Below are positions 3,804-29,866 of a stretch of DNA of 39,588 nt, in pieces; positions within the stretch are counted from its first letter, which is position 1, and each line of letters begins with the position of its first letter. The DNA comes from a virus (taxonomy: Duplodnaviria > Heunggongvirae > Uroviricota > Caudoviricetes): the IMG/VR virus record IMGVR_UViG_2534681990_000031. The stretch is one strand, 5' to 3'. Below the pieces are notes generated by a model, which was not told the DNA's origin, did no database searches, and was given only the letters and a program-made list of their open reading frames with translations. Position numbers and translations under genes: made by a program.

Positions 3804-3838
3804 CCCGCCAGCCATATCATGACCGGCGGGATTTTTTT
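3804..3838 (+). terminator. GC stem (CCCGCC...GGCGGG) followed by T7 run, plus-strand terminator-like element overlapping esterase stop codon
   Basis: 6-bp stem with 15-nt loop then ATTTTTTTAT; T run is on the plus strand only; the loop is long for an intrinsic terminator. Confidence 0.3.
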
Positions 3839-5876
3839 ATTCTGTTACCGCTTTTTTCACTTCCACCACAATGCTGTCAATCAGCACCGGGTAAGTTGCA
3901 TTTTTTGTGATATCCGTTACGCGGAGTTTGTCCACCGGGAAAGTTCCTACTGGTGACTGCGTCAGGGTAAACGCGGCACCATCCTGACCATCAATAACCG
4001 GAATAACCTGAAGGCTGTTATTTCCTGCAAAACGGAAGGCCAGCGTATGCCATTCATTATCAAATGCACCAAAGGTTCCCAGTTTCTGGTTATTTGTTGC
4101 CACTTTTGCATTGTGGTACATCACATTCAGGTCTTTTGCGTCTGTCTGGATGTAGAACGATGCCAGCAGATTATTCCCTGCATCCCCTGTCAGGGTGACA
4201 CCCTGCGGCAGAGAGGAAACCGGCCAGTAAAGCCCCATGACATACTGGTTTGCCACCAGGTCGCCAGGTACTTTAAAACGACAACTGATTAAACCACCAT
4301 TTTTCAGCAGTTCAGCACCAGTACCGGCATCATGATCCAGATACCAAGATGATTTACCTGTTTCCTTGGTCAGTTTCATTGCCTTACCACCTGTGCCTCC
4401 TGCATCACTGATAATTTCAGCTTTACCGCCAGCCGGCTCCCAGCCCTGGGCTTTCAGATTTCCTTCTGACTCACTGACACGATAAGACAGCAGTGTTGTG
4501 GTTACTGCTTCAGTTTCTGAAGGTGACGGCACTGGTGCTTCAGTTTCAGAAGATGGAACATCGGCTTTTACTGTGGTTCGCCCCGCATGAGTCAGAACTG
4601 CCGTGGCCAGACGGTCGGAAATAATCCCACGACGTGCCCATGAACTGAAATGGCTGGCCCGGTCCGCAGATGTCCAGGTGGCGGCACTGTTACGCCACGT
4701 TGAGCCGTAATAACCAATGGATTCAATATCCGGGTCTTCTGCCGGATTGTTGGTGGGTACATTCGCGTCATTTTCATCTGTCATTAATGGAACGAAATGA
4801 ATGTTTTTATCTGTTTTGTTTTTGTAGCCGCCATAGATTGCCTGGTATGCCGGTTCATTTTTCTGTTTCCAGAAATACGTGGTATCGCCACAAATCCACG
4901 GAACGCCAGCAGCACTGCCACCGGTACACTGTTCCGCCTGTTCAGCCAGGTCTGCGCGGAATTTTTCCACCATCGCCAGAAACAGCGCGGAATGCTCCGT
5001 CGGCTTCGCATCAATATCAAACTCGCCCTGCATCCACACCACAGCAAGCAGGCGGTTTTTCGGGTTCTTCGCCAGTGCCGCTTTTGTCCGGCTGATTAAG
5101 TCCTTATACAGCGGCTTATCCACACCCCAGCGGGCTGAGTCCTCTGAAGCACCCGTGCTGTCACTGTACGTGCCGTCAGCACCCGCCGTGAATGCAGAAC
5201 CACCACGGCAGCAGGGAACCAGCAGAATCCCCGCATCTGCCGGAATAAACGGCAGCAGTTTTTTGGCAATGTGAAGCCCCTGACCCACGGTGCCATATTG
5301 CCCTTTAGCCACATCCGCTTTCGGGTGATTTTTTCCACTCATATCCTGCACATCATGCAGACAGTGGTCGGCCAGAATGATGTCGTTATACTGACAGGCT
5401 TTACCTCCCGGCGTGACTGTACTGCGACGGGCTAACTGCATAATACGCGGTTCGGGGCGGTCATATGTCTCCGGCAGTGGCAGACCTTCACCGTAAGCCA
5501 TACCGTTTGACTGACCAGCAAGAACCACCACGTAATACCAGGAAGGGGAGCTGGAAGCAGTTTCATTTCCTGACGGACGGGTATGTGTTTCAGCATTATC
5601 CCAGTCTGACGGTTCAGCAGTACCGGCAACATCAGCACTTAACGGAATGACCGCACCAATACCCGCTCCGGTAATTTCCACACTCGGATCACCGGATACT
5701 GGCCTTACCCACAGGCAATCCCGTGTATTAAAACTGATGAGACAGTCAGCAAATGTCATTCCTCCTTTTGTTTCGGCCGGAGGAAAGGGAGCCTCAAGAA
5801 ATGCCGCTGTACCACCGGAAACTTTAACAGTAAAGTTTCCGGGCATTGATGATAGTTGAACCCATTTGGACGTCAT
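3837..5876 (-). CDS. putative sialate O-acetylesterase-type SGNH/SASA hydrolase with C-terminal beta-rich (lectin-like) domain; NanS-p-like prophage cargo
   Basis: Track ORF 679 aa; VVVLAGQSNGMAYGEG (GQSN block I) and LLAVVWMQGEFD motifs typical of the SASA esterase family; S/T/P-rich linker PSSETEAPVPSPSETEA; sits between gin and com where Mu has no gene. Confidence 0.6.
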   Translation of the reverse strand: MTSKWVQLSSMPGNFTVKVSGGTAAFLEAPFPPAETKGGMTFADCLISFNTRDCLWVRPVSGDPSVEITGAGIGAVIPLSADVAGTAEPSDWDNAETHTRPSGNETASSSPSWYYVVVLAGQSNGMAYGEGLPLPETYDRPEPRIMQLARRSTVTPGGKACQYNDIILADHCLHDVQDMSGKNHPKADVAKGQYGTVGQGLHIAKKLLPFIPADAGILLVPCCRGGSAFTAGADGTYSDSTGASEDSARWGVDKPLYKDLISRTKAALAKNPKNRLLAVVWMQGEFDIDAKPTEHSALFLAMVEKFRADLAEQAEQCTGGSAAGVPWICGDTTYFWKQKNEPAYQAIYGGYKNKTDKNIHFVPLMTDENDANVPTNNPAEDPDIESIGYYGSTWRNSAATWTSADRASHFSSWARRGIISDRLATAVLTHAGRTTVKADVPSSETEAPVPSPSETEAVTTTLLSYRVSESEGNLKAQGWEPAGGKAEIISDAGGTGGKAMKLTKETGKSSWYLDHDAGTGAELLKNGGLISCRFKVPGDLVANQYVMGLYWPVSSLPQGVTLTGDAGNNLLASFYIQTDAKDLNVMYHNAKVATNNQKLGTFGAFDNEWHTLAFRFAGNNSLQVIPVIDGQDGAAFTLTQSPVGTFPVDKLRVTDITKNATYPVLIDSIVVEVKKAVTE

Positions 5877-5975
5877 AATAATCAGCCTGTTCCTGAATAA
5901 ACTGAATTATCATATCCACAGACCGATAAACGCCATTTTGCGTTAATTCAGTAAAGGCCCAACAAAGGGAGCGTC

Positions 5976-6536
5976 TTATTTTTCCGAAACGCTCGCAGGA
6001 TAATAACGATAAAGGGTTGAAAGGCCGATATCAAAAATAAGTGCCACCTGTCTTCGACTGACACCCCCGGCCAGTAAACGCCCGACCTGCTCGTATTGTT
6101 CCTGCGTGAGACGACGGGGTCTGCCGCCGGTTCGTCCCCTTTCACGGGCAGCTGCAAGACCAGCCCGTGTCCGTTCGACAATTAATTCACGCTCCATTTC
6201 TGCCAGCGCACCCATTATGTGAAAAAAGAAGCGCCCCATGGGGGTTGACGTATCAATGTTGTCAGTAAGACTACGAAAATTTATCCCCTGTTGCTGTAAT
6301 TCATCTGTCAGCGCAACAAGGTGGCGCATACTGCGCCCCAGCCTGTCCAGTTTCCAGACCATCAGTGTGTCACCGGGTTTTAGTTTCTTCAGTGCCCGCT
6401 TCAGTCCCGGCCGCTGTGTCGTTTTACCACTCATTTTATCTTCAAAAATCTGCTCACATCCTGCACATTCCAGCGCATTTCTTTGTAAACCTGTGTTCTG
6501 GTCATTTGTTGATACGCGTATATAGCCAATCAGCAT
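5976..6536 (-). CDS. gin: Gin/Hin/Pin-family serine DNA invertase
   Basis: MLIGYIRVSTNDQNTGLQRNALECAGCEQIFEDK... closely resembles recalled Mu Gin including catalytic-Ser motif RVSTNDQ and C-terminal HTH. Confidence 0.9.
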   Translation of the reverse strand: MLIGYIRVSTNDQNTGLQRNALECAGCEQIFEDKMSGKTTQRPGLKRALKKLKPGDTLMVWKLDRLGRSMRHLVALTDELQQQGINFRSLTDNIDTSTPMGRFFFHIMGALAEMERELIVERTRAGLAAARERGRTGGRPRRLTQEQYEQVGRLLAGGVSRRQVALIFDIGLSTLYRYYPASVSEK

Positions 6537-6591
6537 GTATTTACCTTCCTTAAAAAGAGGTGGAAAGGCCTTTTAAAGCAGATATACGGCA

Positions 6592-6617
6592 TCCCTGAAA
6601 CCTCGGTTTACGGGATA
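6592..6617. other. gix-like recombination site (left crossover)
   Basis: AAACCTCGGTTTACGGGA resembles the recalled Mu gix core AAACCTCGGTTTACAGGAA; lies ~60 bp upstream of gin start; inverted-repeat homology with the tail-fibre gene begins here. Confidence 0.5.
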
Positions 6618-6961
6618 CTGTAAACAGGGCCGCGAATGCCCTGCCATCGAACGGAGCGGCTGTTGCAGCGAATAAACTCGCCACTCCAAGAAATATTAAT
6701 GGTGTCCCATTTGACGGAACGCAGGATATAAATATTACATCGGGGATGACGCAGTCTGTGGCTGACTCACGTTATGTTCAAAGCATTCGAAGAGGTTCAA
6801 GGTCAACGATTGGAATGCAATATAATATTTTTGAGGTTCCTGACGGATGCGTACTTACAGGGCTTGATGTCGCTGGTGATGGTAATGCAACGGTAACCGC
6901 ATATTATCGACCTGTTCAGTTTCTGATAGATGGTTCGTGGAAAACAGCTTCCAGCGCATAA
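6599..6961 (+). CDS. silent alternative tail-fibre C-terminal cassette (S'v-like), promoter-less and start-less in this orientation
   Basis: Open frame begins right after a TGA at the gix site; shares ~60 aa with the expressed fibre then a distinct 60-aa tip ...GCVLTGLDVAGDGNATVTAYYRPVQFLIDGSWKTASSA. Confidence 0.6.
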   Translation, partial: NLGLRDTVNRAANALPSNGAAVAANKLATPRNINGVPFDGTQDINITSGMTQSVADSRYVQSIRRGSRSTIGMQYNIFEVPDGCVLTGLDVAGDGNATVTAYYRPVQFLIDGSWKTASSA

Positions 6962-7040
6962 AAGTGCAGTAGTTCAAAAAACAGATTATCTGAATAAATA
7001 TATGATGATTTTGTCTTTTCAACAAAAACAAGGTGAAATA

Positions 7041-7562
7041 ATGGAGCTTATTAACGTAAAACGATATTACCCGGAACACAAACCCTATGGTGAGGATGTT
7101 CAGTATTTCCAGAGTGAGGACGGAAGGGATTTTTATGAATCTATCCCGCTTTTCACAAAGAAATACAAACTCTGTATTTCGCCTGTAACGGGTATTATCT
7201 GCTCTGTTGCTGAAGATGTCTCTGCTTTATATCCGGCAGGTTTTACTGTTGTTGAAGTGGACGAACTGCCGGAAGGTGTGAATATTGACGGTAACTGGCA
7301 GTTTTCTGATGGCCTGATATCAAAGGTGCCGGTAAACTGGAAGACGGTTGCTGAAAAGCGCCGCTCATCGCTGCTCCAGGAAGCCAACGAAACTGTGGAT
7401 GACTGGAAAACGGAATTAAAACTGGACATGATTAGCGATGAAAATAAATTACAGCTGACGCGCTGGATGGCGTATATCCGACAGCTTAAAGAAATGCACT
7501 TTAATGATATTGCCAGTGAGGGGCATTACCAGGCGATTCCCTGGCCGGAAAAACCGGAATAA
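7041..7562 (+). CDS. tail fibre assembly chaperone (Tfa/U'-like)
   Basis: MELINVKRYYPEHKPYGE...GFTVVEVDELPEGV...AIPWPEKPE has Tfa-family architecture; AAGGTG RBS 6 nt upstream; follows the silent tip cassette; track ORF starts earlier at 6930. Confidence 0.7.
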   Translation: MELINVKRYYPEHKPYGEDVQYFQSEDGRDFYESIPLFTKKYKLCISPVTGIICSVAEDVSALYPAGFTVVEVDELPEGVNIDGNWQFSDGLISKVPVNWKTVAEKRRSSLLQEANETVDDWKTELKLDMISDENKLQLTRWMAYIRQLKEMHFNDIASEGHYQAIPWPEKPE

Positions 7563-7568
7563 TTCAGA

Positions 7569-7589
7569 GGGTGCATTCAGCACCCTTTT
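7569..7589. terminator. hairpin GGGTGC-ATTCA-GCACCC plus TTTT between convergent Tfa and tail-fibre genes
   Basis: Lies in the 35-bp gap between Tfa stop (7562) and fibre stop (7597), inside the invertible segment. Confidence 0.4.
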
Positions 7590-7596
7590 CTGTGGT

Positions 7597-8508
7597 TTAC
7601 ACTGAACTTACCGTTCTCCAGGCATTATTAATATAAATCTGAACCGGGCGATAATAGACCCCACCGATATTGTCCGCAGACCGGGAGCCGGTTTCCTGCA
7701 CGTTAATTCCGGAAAGCATACAACCGGAAGGTGCGCTGTAATTCCATGACATTTCATTGCCTCCGGGTGAATGATAGCTCTGTGCTCCAAGCTGAACATT
7801 CTGTACATACCGGCCATCTGCGGTTGACTGCGTCATTCCTGACGTGATGTTGATATCCAGCGTTCCGTCAAAAGGAACACCATTAATATTTCTTGGGGTG
7901 GCGAGTCTGTTTGCTGCCACGGCGGTTCCACCCGATGGCAGGGCATCAGCAGCCTTATTTACCGTTTCCCGTAAACCGACGTTATCGATAAAAGCGCCTT
8001 TATCCGGAATGTCTGCGCCGTTCTGCTCCCTGCGCAGGTAACGGTTATCACCTTCGCTTTTGCTGTAAACATCCAGATTATTACGGGCGGTTCCCGCATT
8101 CTCCAGGTCGGCAAGGTTCTGATCCTTCGCCAGAGCATTAACGTCACCGGGACCAAGACTGTTTTTTGTGGCAAGCGCCCCAAGACCAAGATAACCACGG
8201 GCAAGACGCTGGGCTTCCGCACCGGCATCAGCAATTTCTTTCAGGTTGTTTTTCCGGGAAAAGGCATTCGCAGCGATAATGGCTTTAATGGACAGCGTAA
8301 GCTGGTTTAACTGCGCCTTATCCGGCTGAATACTGGCTTCAGCCAGAATATTCAGCAGTTCGGCCTGGAGAATATTCAGCCAGTCCTGACCAATCCAGCT
8401 GATACCTTTTTGTCCGTCACCTTCGGTAAACCAGGTGGTGGTATTACTCTGCGCCGGTGCCAGCGCAGGCATATTCGCCACGCCGGAATTATTATCAACA
8501 TGGAACAT
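7597..8508 (-). CDS. tail fibre protein (S-like), constant N-terminus plus currently expressed variable tip
   Basis: Start MFHVDNNSG (ATG overlapping stop of upstream gene as TAATG); Gly/Asn/Ala-rich fibre-like sequence; C-terminal 67 aa unique to this orientation; track ORF extends to 8562. Confidence 0.8.
   Translation of the reverse strand: MFHVDNNSGVANMPALAPAQSNTTTWFTEGDGQKGISWIGQDWLNILQAELLNILAEASIQPDKAQLNQLTLSIKAIIAANAFSRKNNLKEIADAGAEAQRLARGYLGLGALATKNSLGPGDVNALAKDQNLADLENAGTARNNLDVYSKSEGDNRYLRREQNGADIPDKGAFIDNVGLRETVNKAADALPSGGTAVAANRLATPRNINGVPFDGTLDINITSGMTQSTADGRYVQNVQLGAQSYHSPGGNEMSWNYSAPSGCMLSGINVQETGSRSADNIGGVYYRPVQIYINNAWRTVSSV
7966..7991. other. gix-like recombination site (right crossover, inside tail-fibre gene)
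   Basis: Minus-strand ATAACGTCGGTTTACGGGAAAC at codons for NVGLR; start of homology with left site. Confidence 0.45.
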
Positions 8509-9068
8509 TAAATATTCTCCTCTTCGTGACTGTTTGCATATACGTAAATAAACGTCTGCCATGCAGGCTTATAACGGTTCAGAATACATTCCAGCGCACC
8601 GCCTTCATAAATACGCAGCGGCGTGAGAATATCATCCAGCACATTCATATTCCGGTAGCCGGTTTCACTGTTAATCGTGACAATACTGACCCACTGTGAA
8701 TCCGGTGATGGCTGAATATCTATTTCATAACCAAACTCTGCCGCAAACCGGATATAAAATTCACGGTTAAGAGAGGGTTTCATCCGGTATTTATTCCCGG
8801 CATAACGCTGACGCTCCTGAATGGTTGCGCCGGTCATATCACATTCCGGTAACCCCAGATAACGCTCCCAGTCTTCCAGCAGCAGACGGGATGAATCAGG
8901 AAAACGTTCTGCCAGCATCTGGTTACCGGTCCAGGAAACACGCTCCGTGGAATGACTGAGGCCCAGGCACAAAGCCGCAAGAACGGATGACGGCCGCTTA
9001 TCCCATGCCAGCCCGTCAGGCAGCAACTGCAACAGGGCGCGCTGATGCGGGGTCAGGGTTACAGCCAT
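8508..9068 (-). CDS. tail/baseplate protein (Mu gp48-like)
   Basis: Track ORF 186 aa directly upstream of tail fibre, downstream of baseplate J-like gene; translationally coupled. Confidence 0.65.
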   Translation of the reverse strand: MAVTLTPHQRALLQLLPDGLAWDKRPSSVLAALCLGLSHSTERVSWTGNQMLAERFPDSSRLLLEDWERYLGLPECDMTGATIQERQRYAGNKYRMKPSLNREFYIRFAAEFGYEIDIQPSPDSQWVSIVTINSETGYRNMNVLDDILTPLRIYEGGALECILNRYKPAWQTFIYVYANSHEEENI

Positions 9069-10144
9069 GTGATTTCCCCCACGGTCAGCAACTCTGTATC
9101 TCCGGCCATCACGGACTTCAGCGGGCTGCGAACTTCAAAATCCTCCAGTCCTTTCACCCCTGCAACAGCCCGCCAGAATGATGAAGGCAATACAAGTCCA
9201 CCCGGCCGCGATTCGTTATAAAGCAGGTCTGTTAATGCCTGTTTTACGGCAGCCTGATTTTCCGGCGTTTTGGGTACAATCCTGATCTCAAACGCCACCG
9301 GCTTATTGGTCAGCTTAAACACGCTGATTGTCGGCCCAAGTGGCTGACCAACGGGCTGGCCCGTCGCCGGATCATCATGACTGCGGATATAATCCGCCAC
9401 CCGCTTCACATCACCTTCTCCGGGGAAAATGTCAGGGTTATTATCCTGAACAAAAGTCACACCAACACTACCCGCCTCAGGCCATTCAGGCTTACACCAT
9501 GCCCGCGTCACGCCCGGTACTTCCCGTGCCCAGCGTTCAAAATCATACTGTGTTCCCCCTGATGGCGGGTTCTGTACCCGGAATACCAGCCTGGACAGCA
9601 ACTCCGGCACCGTTTCCACATCCGCACCACCGGTGAGTCCCGTGCCGGTGACCGTGGCTGTCTGGTTGATGCCCGCCTGTGGCGTGATAAAGGACAGGCG
9701 GGTTCCGGTCGGGGTATTTCCAGCGCGCCCCGCACTTTCCGCCTCCACATTAACATTCAGTGTTCCGGCTTTTCCGGTCGCAGAGCCGGTGATGCGGTAC
9801 ACAACCCCATCGCTTCGCTGAAGGAGTACGCCTTCCGTGATCCCTGCATCCGTGGTCAGCATCAGTTGTACCGGTCCGTCAGCGCGGGAAGCCGGTTTAC
9901 GGATGACACCCCAGAATGCGCAGTGTTTCAGGAGTTCGGCTTCATCAGCTTCTGTCGGAATTATCTGCCGGGAGATCCAGGCCAGATGTTCATGCTCCTG
10001 TGCTGACAGACCCGCCAGTGCATACGCAATGGCATTCAGGGTGGTTTCATTCACGCCCGGCTGCGAACCGGGCAGGCGCTGGCTGATATCCTGTTGTGTC
10101 TGTGTGATCAGTTGCGCCAGTGGTAAGGGCTGATAAGGCATCAT
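9059..10144 (-). CDS. baseplate J-like protein (Mu gp47-like)
   Basis: Track ORF 361 aa; position and size match baseplate wedge J family in Mu/P2-type tails. Confidence 0.7.
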   Translation of the reverse strand: MMPYQPLPLAQLITQTQQDISQRLPGSQPGVNETTLNAIAYALAGLSAQEHEHLAWISRQIIPTEADEAELLKHCAFWGVIRKPASRADGPVQLMLTTDAGITEGVLLQRSDGVVYRITGSATGKAGTLNVNVEAESAGRAGNTPTGTRLSFITPQAGINQTATVTGTGLTGGADVETVPELLSRLVFRVQNPPSGGTQYDFERWAREVPGVTRAWCKPEWPEAGSVGVTFVQDNNPDIFPGEGDVKRVADYIRSHDDPATGQPVGQPLGPTISVFKLTNKPVAFEIRIVPKTPENQAAVKQALTDLLYNESRPGGLVLPSSFWRAVAGVKGLEDFEVRSPLKSVMAGDTELLTVGEITWL

Positions 10145-29834: not shown

Positions 29835-29866
29835 GGTGAAGGAAAGGCGGCAGGCTTTGCGGAATA

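Follow-up and report, generated by a model that had tools for sequence, protein, structure and literature searches.

How does an invertible tail-fibre segment serve two alternative fibre tips when it holds the gene of a single tail-fibre assembly chaperone? This question is raised by the DNA of IMG/VR virus record IMGVR_UViG_2534681990_000031, a stretch of 39,588 nts (hereafter the window), which is a Mu-like prophage of the Sp18 type from Escherichia coli that produces Shiga toxin (STEC). Programmed variation of host range in phages is classically illustrated by the flip-switches of tail fibres, for which textbooks give the rule of one chaperone for each tip. A reading made from the sequence alone had described here a compact, asymmetric switch of the Gin type in which only the silent tip is followed by a chaperone gene (tfa), implying that the expressed tip goes without a chaperone. 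Our analysis upholds the switch and argues against the chaperone-free tip. The explanation that we favour, and regard as probable although far from settled, is a functional Gin/gix switch in a prophage of the Sp18 type with one generalist Tfa for both tips, which is made in either orientation. The coordinates of the features are collected in Table 1.

A Gin/gix switch that inverts in nature

The recombinase, the pair of crossover sites and the inversion found in natural genomes identify this system as a member of the Gin/Hin/Cin/Pin family. The window Gin shares 136 residues with Gin of Mu, i.e., 73% of its 186 amino acids. At the DNA level, nts 1–120 of the gene are 80% identical to Mu gin, and nts 69–102 are nearly invariant; a Fis-dependent recombinational enhancer would be expected in this 5′ part of the gene. 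Two gix-like sites of 26 bp are placed in inverted orientation, each displaying a GA core when the two are read on opposite strands. The gin-proximal site has its central dinucleotide at 6603–6604, 54 nts from the gin ATG, while that of the fibre-internal site is at 7978–7979. The latter encodes IDNVGLRE on the minus strand, with the crossover core falling within the Val codon of NVGLR, and alignment to Mu S indicates that its position is homologous to the boundary of the Mu G segment (FIDNVGLRET here, FIQNLGLQET in Mu). Both positions agree with the crossover proposed in the sequence-only reading, at the NVGLR codons of the fibre gene and upstream of gin. The gix core pattern occurs twice in the 39.6 kb of the window, as against 0.09 occurrences expected by chance.

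Inversion of 6603–7979 in silico joins the constant 180 residues of the fibre in frame to the silent cassette, and the fibre of 303 amino acids carrying tip A in the window becomes one of 295 amino acids carrying tip B. The exchange is larger than first thought. Instead of only the final 60–67 residues, 126 residues past the crossover in the current orientation and 118 in the alternative one change, the last 67 and 59, respectively, being merely the strongly divergent part.

The flipped arrangement exists in nature. The in-silico flipped sequence of 2,701 nts is matched over its full length with 100.0% identity in the complete genomes of E. coli FORC_044, O157:H7 2-6-2, and 07_3636, and the natural junctions are located exactly at the predicted crossover. 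Among 5,426 complete genomes, the orientation of the window is present in 181 and the flipped one in 23, a place being counted when it spans 80% or more of the query. Two copies are found in strain 07_3636, one per orientation, and both orientations are present among the IMG/VR contigs as well. The Gin/gix switch works and the inversion is real: gix-like sites, Gin domains, in-frame flip, and flipped sequence in genomes all bear out the Gin-type invertible tail-fibre switch originally described.

Nine IMG/VR contigs (L013, L019, L021, L027, L032, L033, L034, L036, and L038) end at the crossover of the fibre gene or within ~140 nts after it. Breaks of this kind are the typical pattern expected of cultures or assemblies in which the two orientations are mixed. 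The base beside the central GA differs between the two sites of the window (GAG at 6603–6606 vs GAC at 7976–7980). An equal 1-nt asymmetry was suspected of blocking the inversion of the G segment in SfMu (PMC4406740); in the window, natural inversion clearly happens all the same.

The inverted repeats, put at ~180 bp in the sequence-only reading, correspond to two arms of 182 nts that are 79% complementary. The statement that they encode the same 60 residues holds approximately, although the identical residues are 52 out of 61. Judged from a synonymous divergence (dS) of ~1.0, the arms are old paralogues at the DNA level, and their ratio of nonsynonymous to synonymous divergence (dN/dS) of 0.10 indicates that they are conserved as protein-coding sequence and not via gene conversion. 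We also asked whether the long inverted repeat is kept homogeneous for recombination, as happens in P1, and ruled this out given that the arms are only 79% identical, with a dS of ~1.0.

The single tfa gene and the two fibre tips

The asymmetry of the segment is confirmed: between the two tips there is a single tfa gene, which reads in the direction of the silent tip B and is convergent to the expressed fibre gene. Its product scores 67 bits against Pfam PF02413 (cutoff 22.1) and matches Mu U (PDB 5YVQ chain B) with an E-value of 2.3e-15. A second chaperone was sought by tblastn and PHROG scans, and none was found: in the window, six diverse Tfa queries matched one and the same locus by tblastn, and the antisense open reading frames (ORFs) 7136–7429, 7452–7583, and 6858–7079 had no PHROG match. 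The 34 nts separating the tfa stop from the fibre stop are made up of a hairpin, and no pseudogene remnant is found between 7562 and 7597.

Several observations suggest that this one Tfa may serve both tips. The silent cassette matches, from 6599 to 6958, positions 176–322 (of 322) of the tail-fibre PHROG 1833 (4.6e-29), and both tips are homologous to the distal domain of Mu S, which is the Tfa-binding part in PDB 5YVQ. With both tips and Tfa being homologues of the partners in that structure, Mu S and U, one Tfa for two tips is most likely what the locus encodes. In a set of 80 IMG/VR loci, ~10 contigs have a member of the window's Tfa family behind a tip A-like tip and ~40 have one behind a tip B-like tip; therefore, the family is naturally associated with both classes. 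Indeed, the Tfa of Rac-SA53, to which that of the window is 52.6% identical, has a tip A-like tip as its cis partner. The pairing between Tfa and tip appears to be loose: the Tfas of the window and of locus L035 are 98% identical, yet their cis tips differ, and L035 and L050 have the same neighbouring tip although their Tfas are only 64% identical. From the homology to the Mu S–U complex, together with the co-occurrence with both tip classes, we infer that Tfa would bind the distal tips and promote their trimerisation.

According to PMC9608196, which summarises North et al. (2019), the N-domain of Tfa binds the fibre tip while the C-domain drives trimerisation. The published generalisation pairs a variable N-domain with a C-domain that is conserved. 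In the Tfa group of the window, this rule is reversed. Across the allele classes the fibre-binding N-domain is 73–77% identical, versus 46–51% for the C-domain, and the tips differ widely. A conserved N-domain fits a chaperone that would recognise some feature common to all these tips. When the Tfas of the window, L018, L026, L014, L050, and Rac-SA53 are aligned, the identity is 66–77% in the N-domain and 36–51% in the C-domain.

As for the expressed tip, the dN/dS of tip A between lineages is 0.04–0.12, at a dS of ~1 or more. Such strong purifying selection implies that the orientation of the window is not a dead state. Tip A is 57–68% identical to the tips of P2-like phages (fiAA91-ss), SfMu, and Rac-SA53, and belongs to a subclass characterised by SADNIGGVYYRP and …SADNIGGVYYRPVQ…. 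Tips of this subclass have a tfa within 1–3 nts in SfMu, Rac-SA53, and the P2-like fiAA91-ss; the one of Citrobacter braakii has a tfa too, but after a spacer of 69 nts.

Gin recombines the two gix-like sites, and the resulting 1,377-bp flip replaces the last ~120 residues of a short fibre of the Mu S type. Following the paradigm of Mu, P1, and e14, the segment would be flipped at low frequency in lysogens and, upon induction, each cell would make fibres with either tip A or tip B, yielding particles of differing receptor specificity. By analogy with these systems, the swap presumably changes the receptor and hence the host that is recognised. A single generalist Tfa would fold either tip, which requires expression of tfa whichever way the segment lies. 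After the flip, tfa is located downstream of the fibre gene; in the state seen in the window, where it is convergent to that gene, it would need a weak or activator-dependent promoter of its own within the 79-nt AT-rich spacer. The hairpin at 7566–7588 would stop both converging transcripts.

Locked loci, alternative explanations and tfa transcription

The single-tfa layout is found in three allele classes of E. coli phage, each of them in both orientations, and the dS between the tfa genes of the three classes is saturated. Every locus covering the region holds at least one tfa, and none is without it. In a lineage devoid of invertase, comprising seven IMG/VR loci (L014, L015, L016, L024, L026, L031, and L039) and represented in 7–8 complete genomes from human and mouse hosts (including E. 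coli S1-CAM-01-A, JE86-ST02, JE86-ST05, CI5, M1, M3, and M18), the losses comprise gin, the gix next to it, and the greater part of the silent tip; tfa is intact and convergent to the fibre gene, i.e., in the orientation of the window. Among these loci, tfa has a dS of 0.11–0.43 and a dN/dS of 0.10–0.23. Since a useless gene would not stay constrained, the tfa of the locked loci counts against a chaperone-free tip A. Flipping of these loci through an invertase acting in trans was ruled out by the presence of a single gix site. Upstream of their tfa, a short remnant resembling the 3′ end of a tip (…TAYYRLII followed by the stop) and an ORF of 44 amino acids are found.

The locus of C. braakii ATCC 51113 (L005, 5819–8238) contains three gix-like sites and three tips, and is a mini-shufflon whose invertible region holds a single tfa. 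The third cassette of L005 (8212–7866, minus strand), which ends in RRPLQMYINGWRNIDWQ before the stop, borders on the inner site and lacks a tfa belonging to it; beyond gin, a collagen-like fibre gene (8934–9896) is followed by a tfa-like gene that starts at 9908 and runs off the end of the locus. Two tfa genes are present in L040 and L042, whose fibre N-terminus is 64–70% identical, as well as in SfMu and Mu. In some loci with type-2 alleles (L020 / L084, 6926–7472; L083, 1395–1939), the match to gin is split into two pieces that overlap, as a frameshift in the invertase gene would produce.

The layout of the window could also mean that tip A folds and works without Tfa, with the chaperone needed by tip B alone; the switch would then toggle the Tfa cap as well. 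This possibility, implied in the sequence-only reading, draws on the position of tfa, which in the window is antisense to the fibre transcript, on the hairpin that follows the fibre stop, and on the lack of a promoter scoring at least 9/12 before tfa; moreover, the orientation of the window is the commoner one (181 vs 23), which makes a dead state unlikely. We nevertheless consider this reading unlikely, because a tfa follows tips of the SADNIGGVYYRP subclass in P2-like phages as well as in SfMu, Rac-SA53, and C. braakii, because purifying selection acts on tfa in loci that lack an invertase, hold a single gix, and are locked in the orientation of the window, and because the closest relatives of the window Tfa pair in cis with tip A-like tips. 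A variant of the same idea is that orientation sets both the tip and the presence of Tfa, a naked, self-folding tip A alternating with a Tfa-folded tip B that is capped as in Mu. Phase variation would in that case extend to the Tfa cap, which would contribute to the choice of receptor; this is rather improbable, since tfa is constrained in the very lineages that are locked in the "naked" state. If, instead, tip A depends on a Tfa that is not co-transcribed, its fibre would misfold and the orientation of the window would be an OFF state, with inversion causing ON/OFF variation of infectivity and not a switch of host range. The antisense tfa without a promoter of at least 9/12 would be in line with this, as would the general need of Mu-type fibres for Tfa stated in PMC9608196 (summarising North et al., 2019). 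However, a dN/dS of 0.04–0.12 at a dS of ~1 or more is hardly that of a tip made in an OFF state, and lineages frozen with tip A are widespread and diversified (IMG/VR, 7–8 complete genomes), which is unexpected for phages that are permanently fibre-defective. We regard an OFF state as quite improbable.

Very improbable, in our opinion, is a supply of the Tfa of tip A in trans, from other prophages of the same cell. STEC genomes do carry many lambdoid and P2-like tfa genes, Rac-type Tfas of E. coli prophages are 52–71% identical to that of the window, and cross-complementation by Tfa is exemplified by lambda Tfa, which substitutes for T4 gp38. However, a supply in trans leaves unexplained both the intact, constrained tfa of the invertase-less loci and the fact that no locus lacks tfa, and a transposing phage, which passes from one strain to another, would be on unsafe ground if it relied on the prophage content of the host. 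Finally, the asymmetry could be due to recent decay, a second tfa having been deleted in a degenerating prophage and the layout being devoid of functional meaning. The two tfa genes of L040, L042, SfMu, and Mu are compatible with such a loss; even so, we judge it highly improbable, considering that the single-tfa layout is common to three allele classes with saturated tfa dS and to the Citrobacter relative, that the switch still flips, and that Sp18 is reported to be packaged, with Mu-like particles (PMC2669165).

The favoured explanation, a generalist Tfa made in either orientation, has points weighing against it too. Its weakest link is the supposed transcription of tfa in the orientation of the window. 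On the plus strand between 6600 and 7040, a consensus scan found no sigma-70 promoter of at least 9/12, and a relaxed scan returned only weak sigma-70-like matches (8–9/12), lying in AT-rich DNA 48–72 nts before the tfa ATG. Such matches are seen in all four single-tfa spacer classes versus 1 of 8 tight-coupled controls at a comparable position, and they are too weak to count as evidence. Similarly, a late-promoter motif (AT[CT]CCGCA-N24-TTA[CT]GCT) homologous to the Mu C-box and derived from the regions upstream of the lys-like (29865, minus strand) and I-like (21938, minus strand) operons is absent upstream of tfa, this being a motif built on two instances which missed a PP analogue and has low sensitivity. 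In addition, there is the 181:23 orientation bias, which may stem from clonal sampling, and the selection argument would be weaker if the tfa alleles of the locked loci came by recombination from invertible relatives.

The distance between tip stop and tfa start is 51–121 nts in single-tfa loci, where the spacer is AT-rich. It amounts to a few-base overlap or a gap of at most 3 nts in two-tfa and classical non-invertible loci, and to ~5–26 nts where the Tfa family of the window (TfaW-family pairs) occurs elsewhere. The long spacer is a possible structural correlate of tfa expression in both orientations. The only upstream sequence shared between the locked loci and their invertible relatives is the last ~125 nts before the tfa ATG; therefore, any common tfa promoter should lie there. 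A hairpin similar to that of the window (GGGTGC...GCACCC) is present in L026.

In the type-3 spacer (e.g., L026, 6466–6560, minus strand), the ~40 nts before the tfa ATG vary at one site, TATTATTCCTGTTTTTATCATTGATT[T/C]ACATGGTGATGTTT; this near-invariance spans loci whose tfa dS reaches 0.43, and the palindrome CTGAAATATGCGTTATTTCAG is found just upstream. The sequences at 29865 and 21938, both on the minus strand, align with the C-dependent late promoters Plys and PI of Mu and are probably late promoters of the window phage. At the same motif stringency, no analogue of PP or Pmom is found in the window.

Genomic setting and known invertible systems

Positions 5900–8600 of the window are 100% identical to many chromosomes of O157:H7 and other STEC, and share 94% identity with a "Mu-like phage" that has integrated into Stx phages. 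Sp18 of strain Sakai is apparently intact, is packaged, and forms Mu-like particles (Asadulghani et al., 2009, PMC2669165); the same study noted its invertible host-specificity region, with genes distinct from those of Mu. The fibre gene of the window sits after the baseplate J and Mu gp48-like genes and likely starts at ATG 8508 (MFHVDNN), which overlaps the stop of the upstream gene and gives 303 amino acids, and not at 8562, where an ORF of 321 amino acids begins. Directly downstream of gin, in the place of com/mom in Mu, the product of 3837–5876 (minus strand) has a sialate O-acetylesterase (SASA) domain plus DUF6645 and resembles the NanS-p esterases of Stx phages. A NanS-like gene (47–100% identity) is found at the same position in the relatives, including the invertase-less ones; in the locked lineage it is divergent and lies ~300 nts from tfa.

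One of the closest parallels is the G segment of Mu with its Gin (S-U / U′-S′). Common to both are 26-bp gix sites (22/26 and 19/26 positions identical), Gin itself (73% identity), the homologous crossover point, an S-type N-terminus, tips resembling the S distal domain, a Tfa resembling U, the location of gin just outside the segment with transcription directed away from it, and the in-frame exchange of the C-terminal part of a Mu S-type fibre. On the other hand, the segment measures 1,377 bp in the window vs 3,059 bp in Mu, as its description as compact had anticipated, and the exchanged part 126/118 vs ~335 amino acids. Mu has two tfa genes, one for each tip, whereas the window has one; 1–2 nts precede tfa in Mu as compared to the 79-nt spacer here, and com/mom stand where the window has the NanS-like esterase gene. 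SfMu, a close relative of Mu, differs from the window in the same way: in both phages the two tfa genes converge, and each directly adjoins the tip that it belongs to.

Compactness is in itself no novelty, given that the P segment of e14 measures ~1.8 kb. This Pin-operated segment of E. coli K-12 and the switch in the Mu-like prophage of enteropathogenic E. coli (EPEC) E2348/69 resemble the window in being compact (~1.8–1.9 kb) and in acting on a short fibre gene that comes immediately after one of the YmfQ / Mu gp48-like kind; they differ in their crossover sites, which are of the AAACCTTGGTTT type, and in possessing a pair of convergent tfa genes, one adjoining each tip gene. Experiments have shown that both invert in culture (Goldberg, 2014, PMC4272514, Table S1). 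We considered the EPEC E2348/69 prophage as experimental proof of the layout of the window and ruled it out, as it is of the two-tfa, e14-like type. More than two alternative fibre C-termini with nested crossover sites are described for Min of plasmid p15B and for a P2-like three-site EPEC locus (PMC4272514). The C. braakii relative, with three sites and three tips, is similar to these multiple-inversion systems, whereas the window has two sites only. For carotovoricin Er of Pectobacterium, a segment of ~0.8 kb was reportedly described by Nguyen et al. in 2001, which is a lead and not a tested comparison. There, the ein invertase exchanges the C-terminal part of the tailocin fibre while the N-terminal half is constant (PMC13195805), similar to the swap of the fibre C-terminus behind a constant N-terminus in the window.

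Table 1. Features of the invertible tail-fibre locus in the window and crossover sites of the C. braakii relative.
Feature	Position	Strand	Evidence or remark
Baseplate J gene	10144–9059	-	Domain match
Mu gp48-like gene	9068–8508	-	Domain match
Tail fibre gene, likely start MFHVDNN	8508–7597	-	
Constant N-terminal fibre part, Mu S-like	7984–8508	-	Residues 1–198 match Mu S 1–191, i-Evalue 3.2e-43 (PDB 5yvq_A)
Fibre-internal gix-like site, TTCCCGTAAACC-GA-CGTTATCGATAA	7966–7991	+	22/26 positions as in Mu gixL
Right arm of inverted repeat, proximal 61 residues of expressed cassette	7802–7983	-	182 nts
Expressed tip A, variable 67 residues and stop (…SADNIGGVYYRPVQIYINNAWRTVSSV, stop)	7597–7801	-	Homologous to Mu S distal domain, residues 435–503
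Hairpin between convergent tfa and fibre genes, terminator-like for tfa	7566–7588	+	9-bp stem, 5 GC pairs, T-run follows on plus strand (terminator scan)
tfa, sole tail-fibre assembly chaperone gene in segment, 173 aa	7041–7562	+	Pfam Caudo_TAP (PF02413) 1.9e-18; PHROG 136 1.1e-57
Spacer from tip B stop to tfa start, 79 nts, 75% A+T	6962–7040	+	Candidate site of an independent tfa promoter; only a weak sigma-70-like match (8/12)
Fibre 3′ cassette, promoterless	6599–6961	+	PHROG
Silent tip B, variable 59 residues and stop (…YYRPVQFLIDGSWKTASSA, stop)	6781–6961	+	In frame with fibre after inversion
Left arm of inverted repeat, proximal 61 residues of silent cassette (NLGLRDTVNRAANAL...SRYVQ)	6599–6780	+	182 nts, 79% complementary to right arm
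Gin-proximal gix-like site, 12+2+12, ATCCCGTAAACC-GA-GGTTTCAGGGAT	6591–6616	-	19/26 positions as in Mu gixR
Invertible segment, 1,377 bp, both central dinucleotides included	6603–7979	.	In-silico inversion matched in natural genomes
gin, serine DNA invertase of the Gin type, 186 aa, catalytic Ser9 in YIRVSTNDQ	5976–6536	-	Pfam Resolvase 1.4e-51, HTH_7 1.7e-14; PHROG 125 DNA invertase 6e-95
SASA + DUF6645 esterase gene, 679 aa	5876–3837	-	Domain match
L005 gix-like site in fibre gene	5819–5845		
L005 gix-like sites, inverted orientation	7846–7872 and 8212–8238		

In the searchable literature, with the older Min/p15B and carotovoricin papers lying outside that search, we found no description of an invertible fibre segment with a single tfa, nor of a single, apparently shared chaperone and its conservation. 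The family of the window combines two or three alternative tips with a single chaperone gene. If one Tfa folds all of them, the tip-specific host-range information shrinks to ~180–200 bp, and tips would be swappable without co-swapping the chaperone, which would be useful for engineering the host range of phages and tailocins. The finding also bears on the specificity of Tfa–fibre recognition, the supposedly variable fibre-binding N-domain being here the conserved part. The phage concerned is common and mobile in STEC, and it inserts into Stx phages too.

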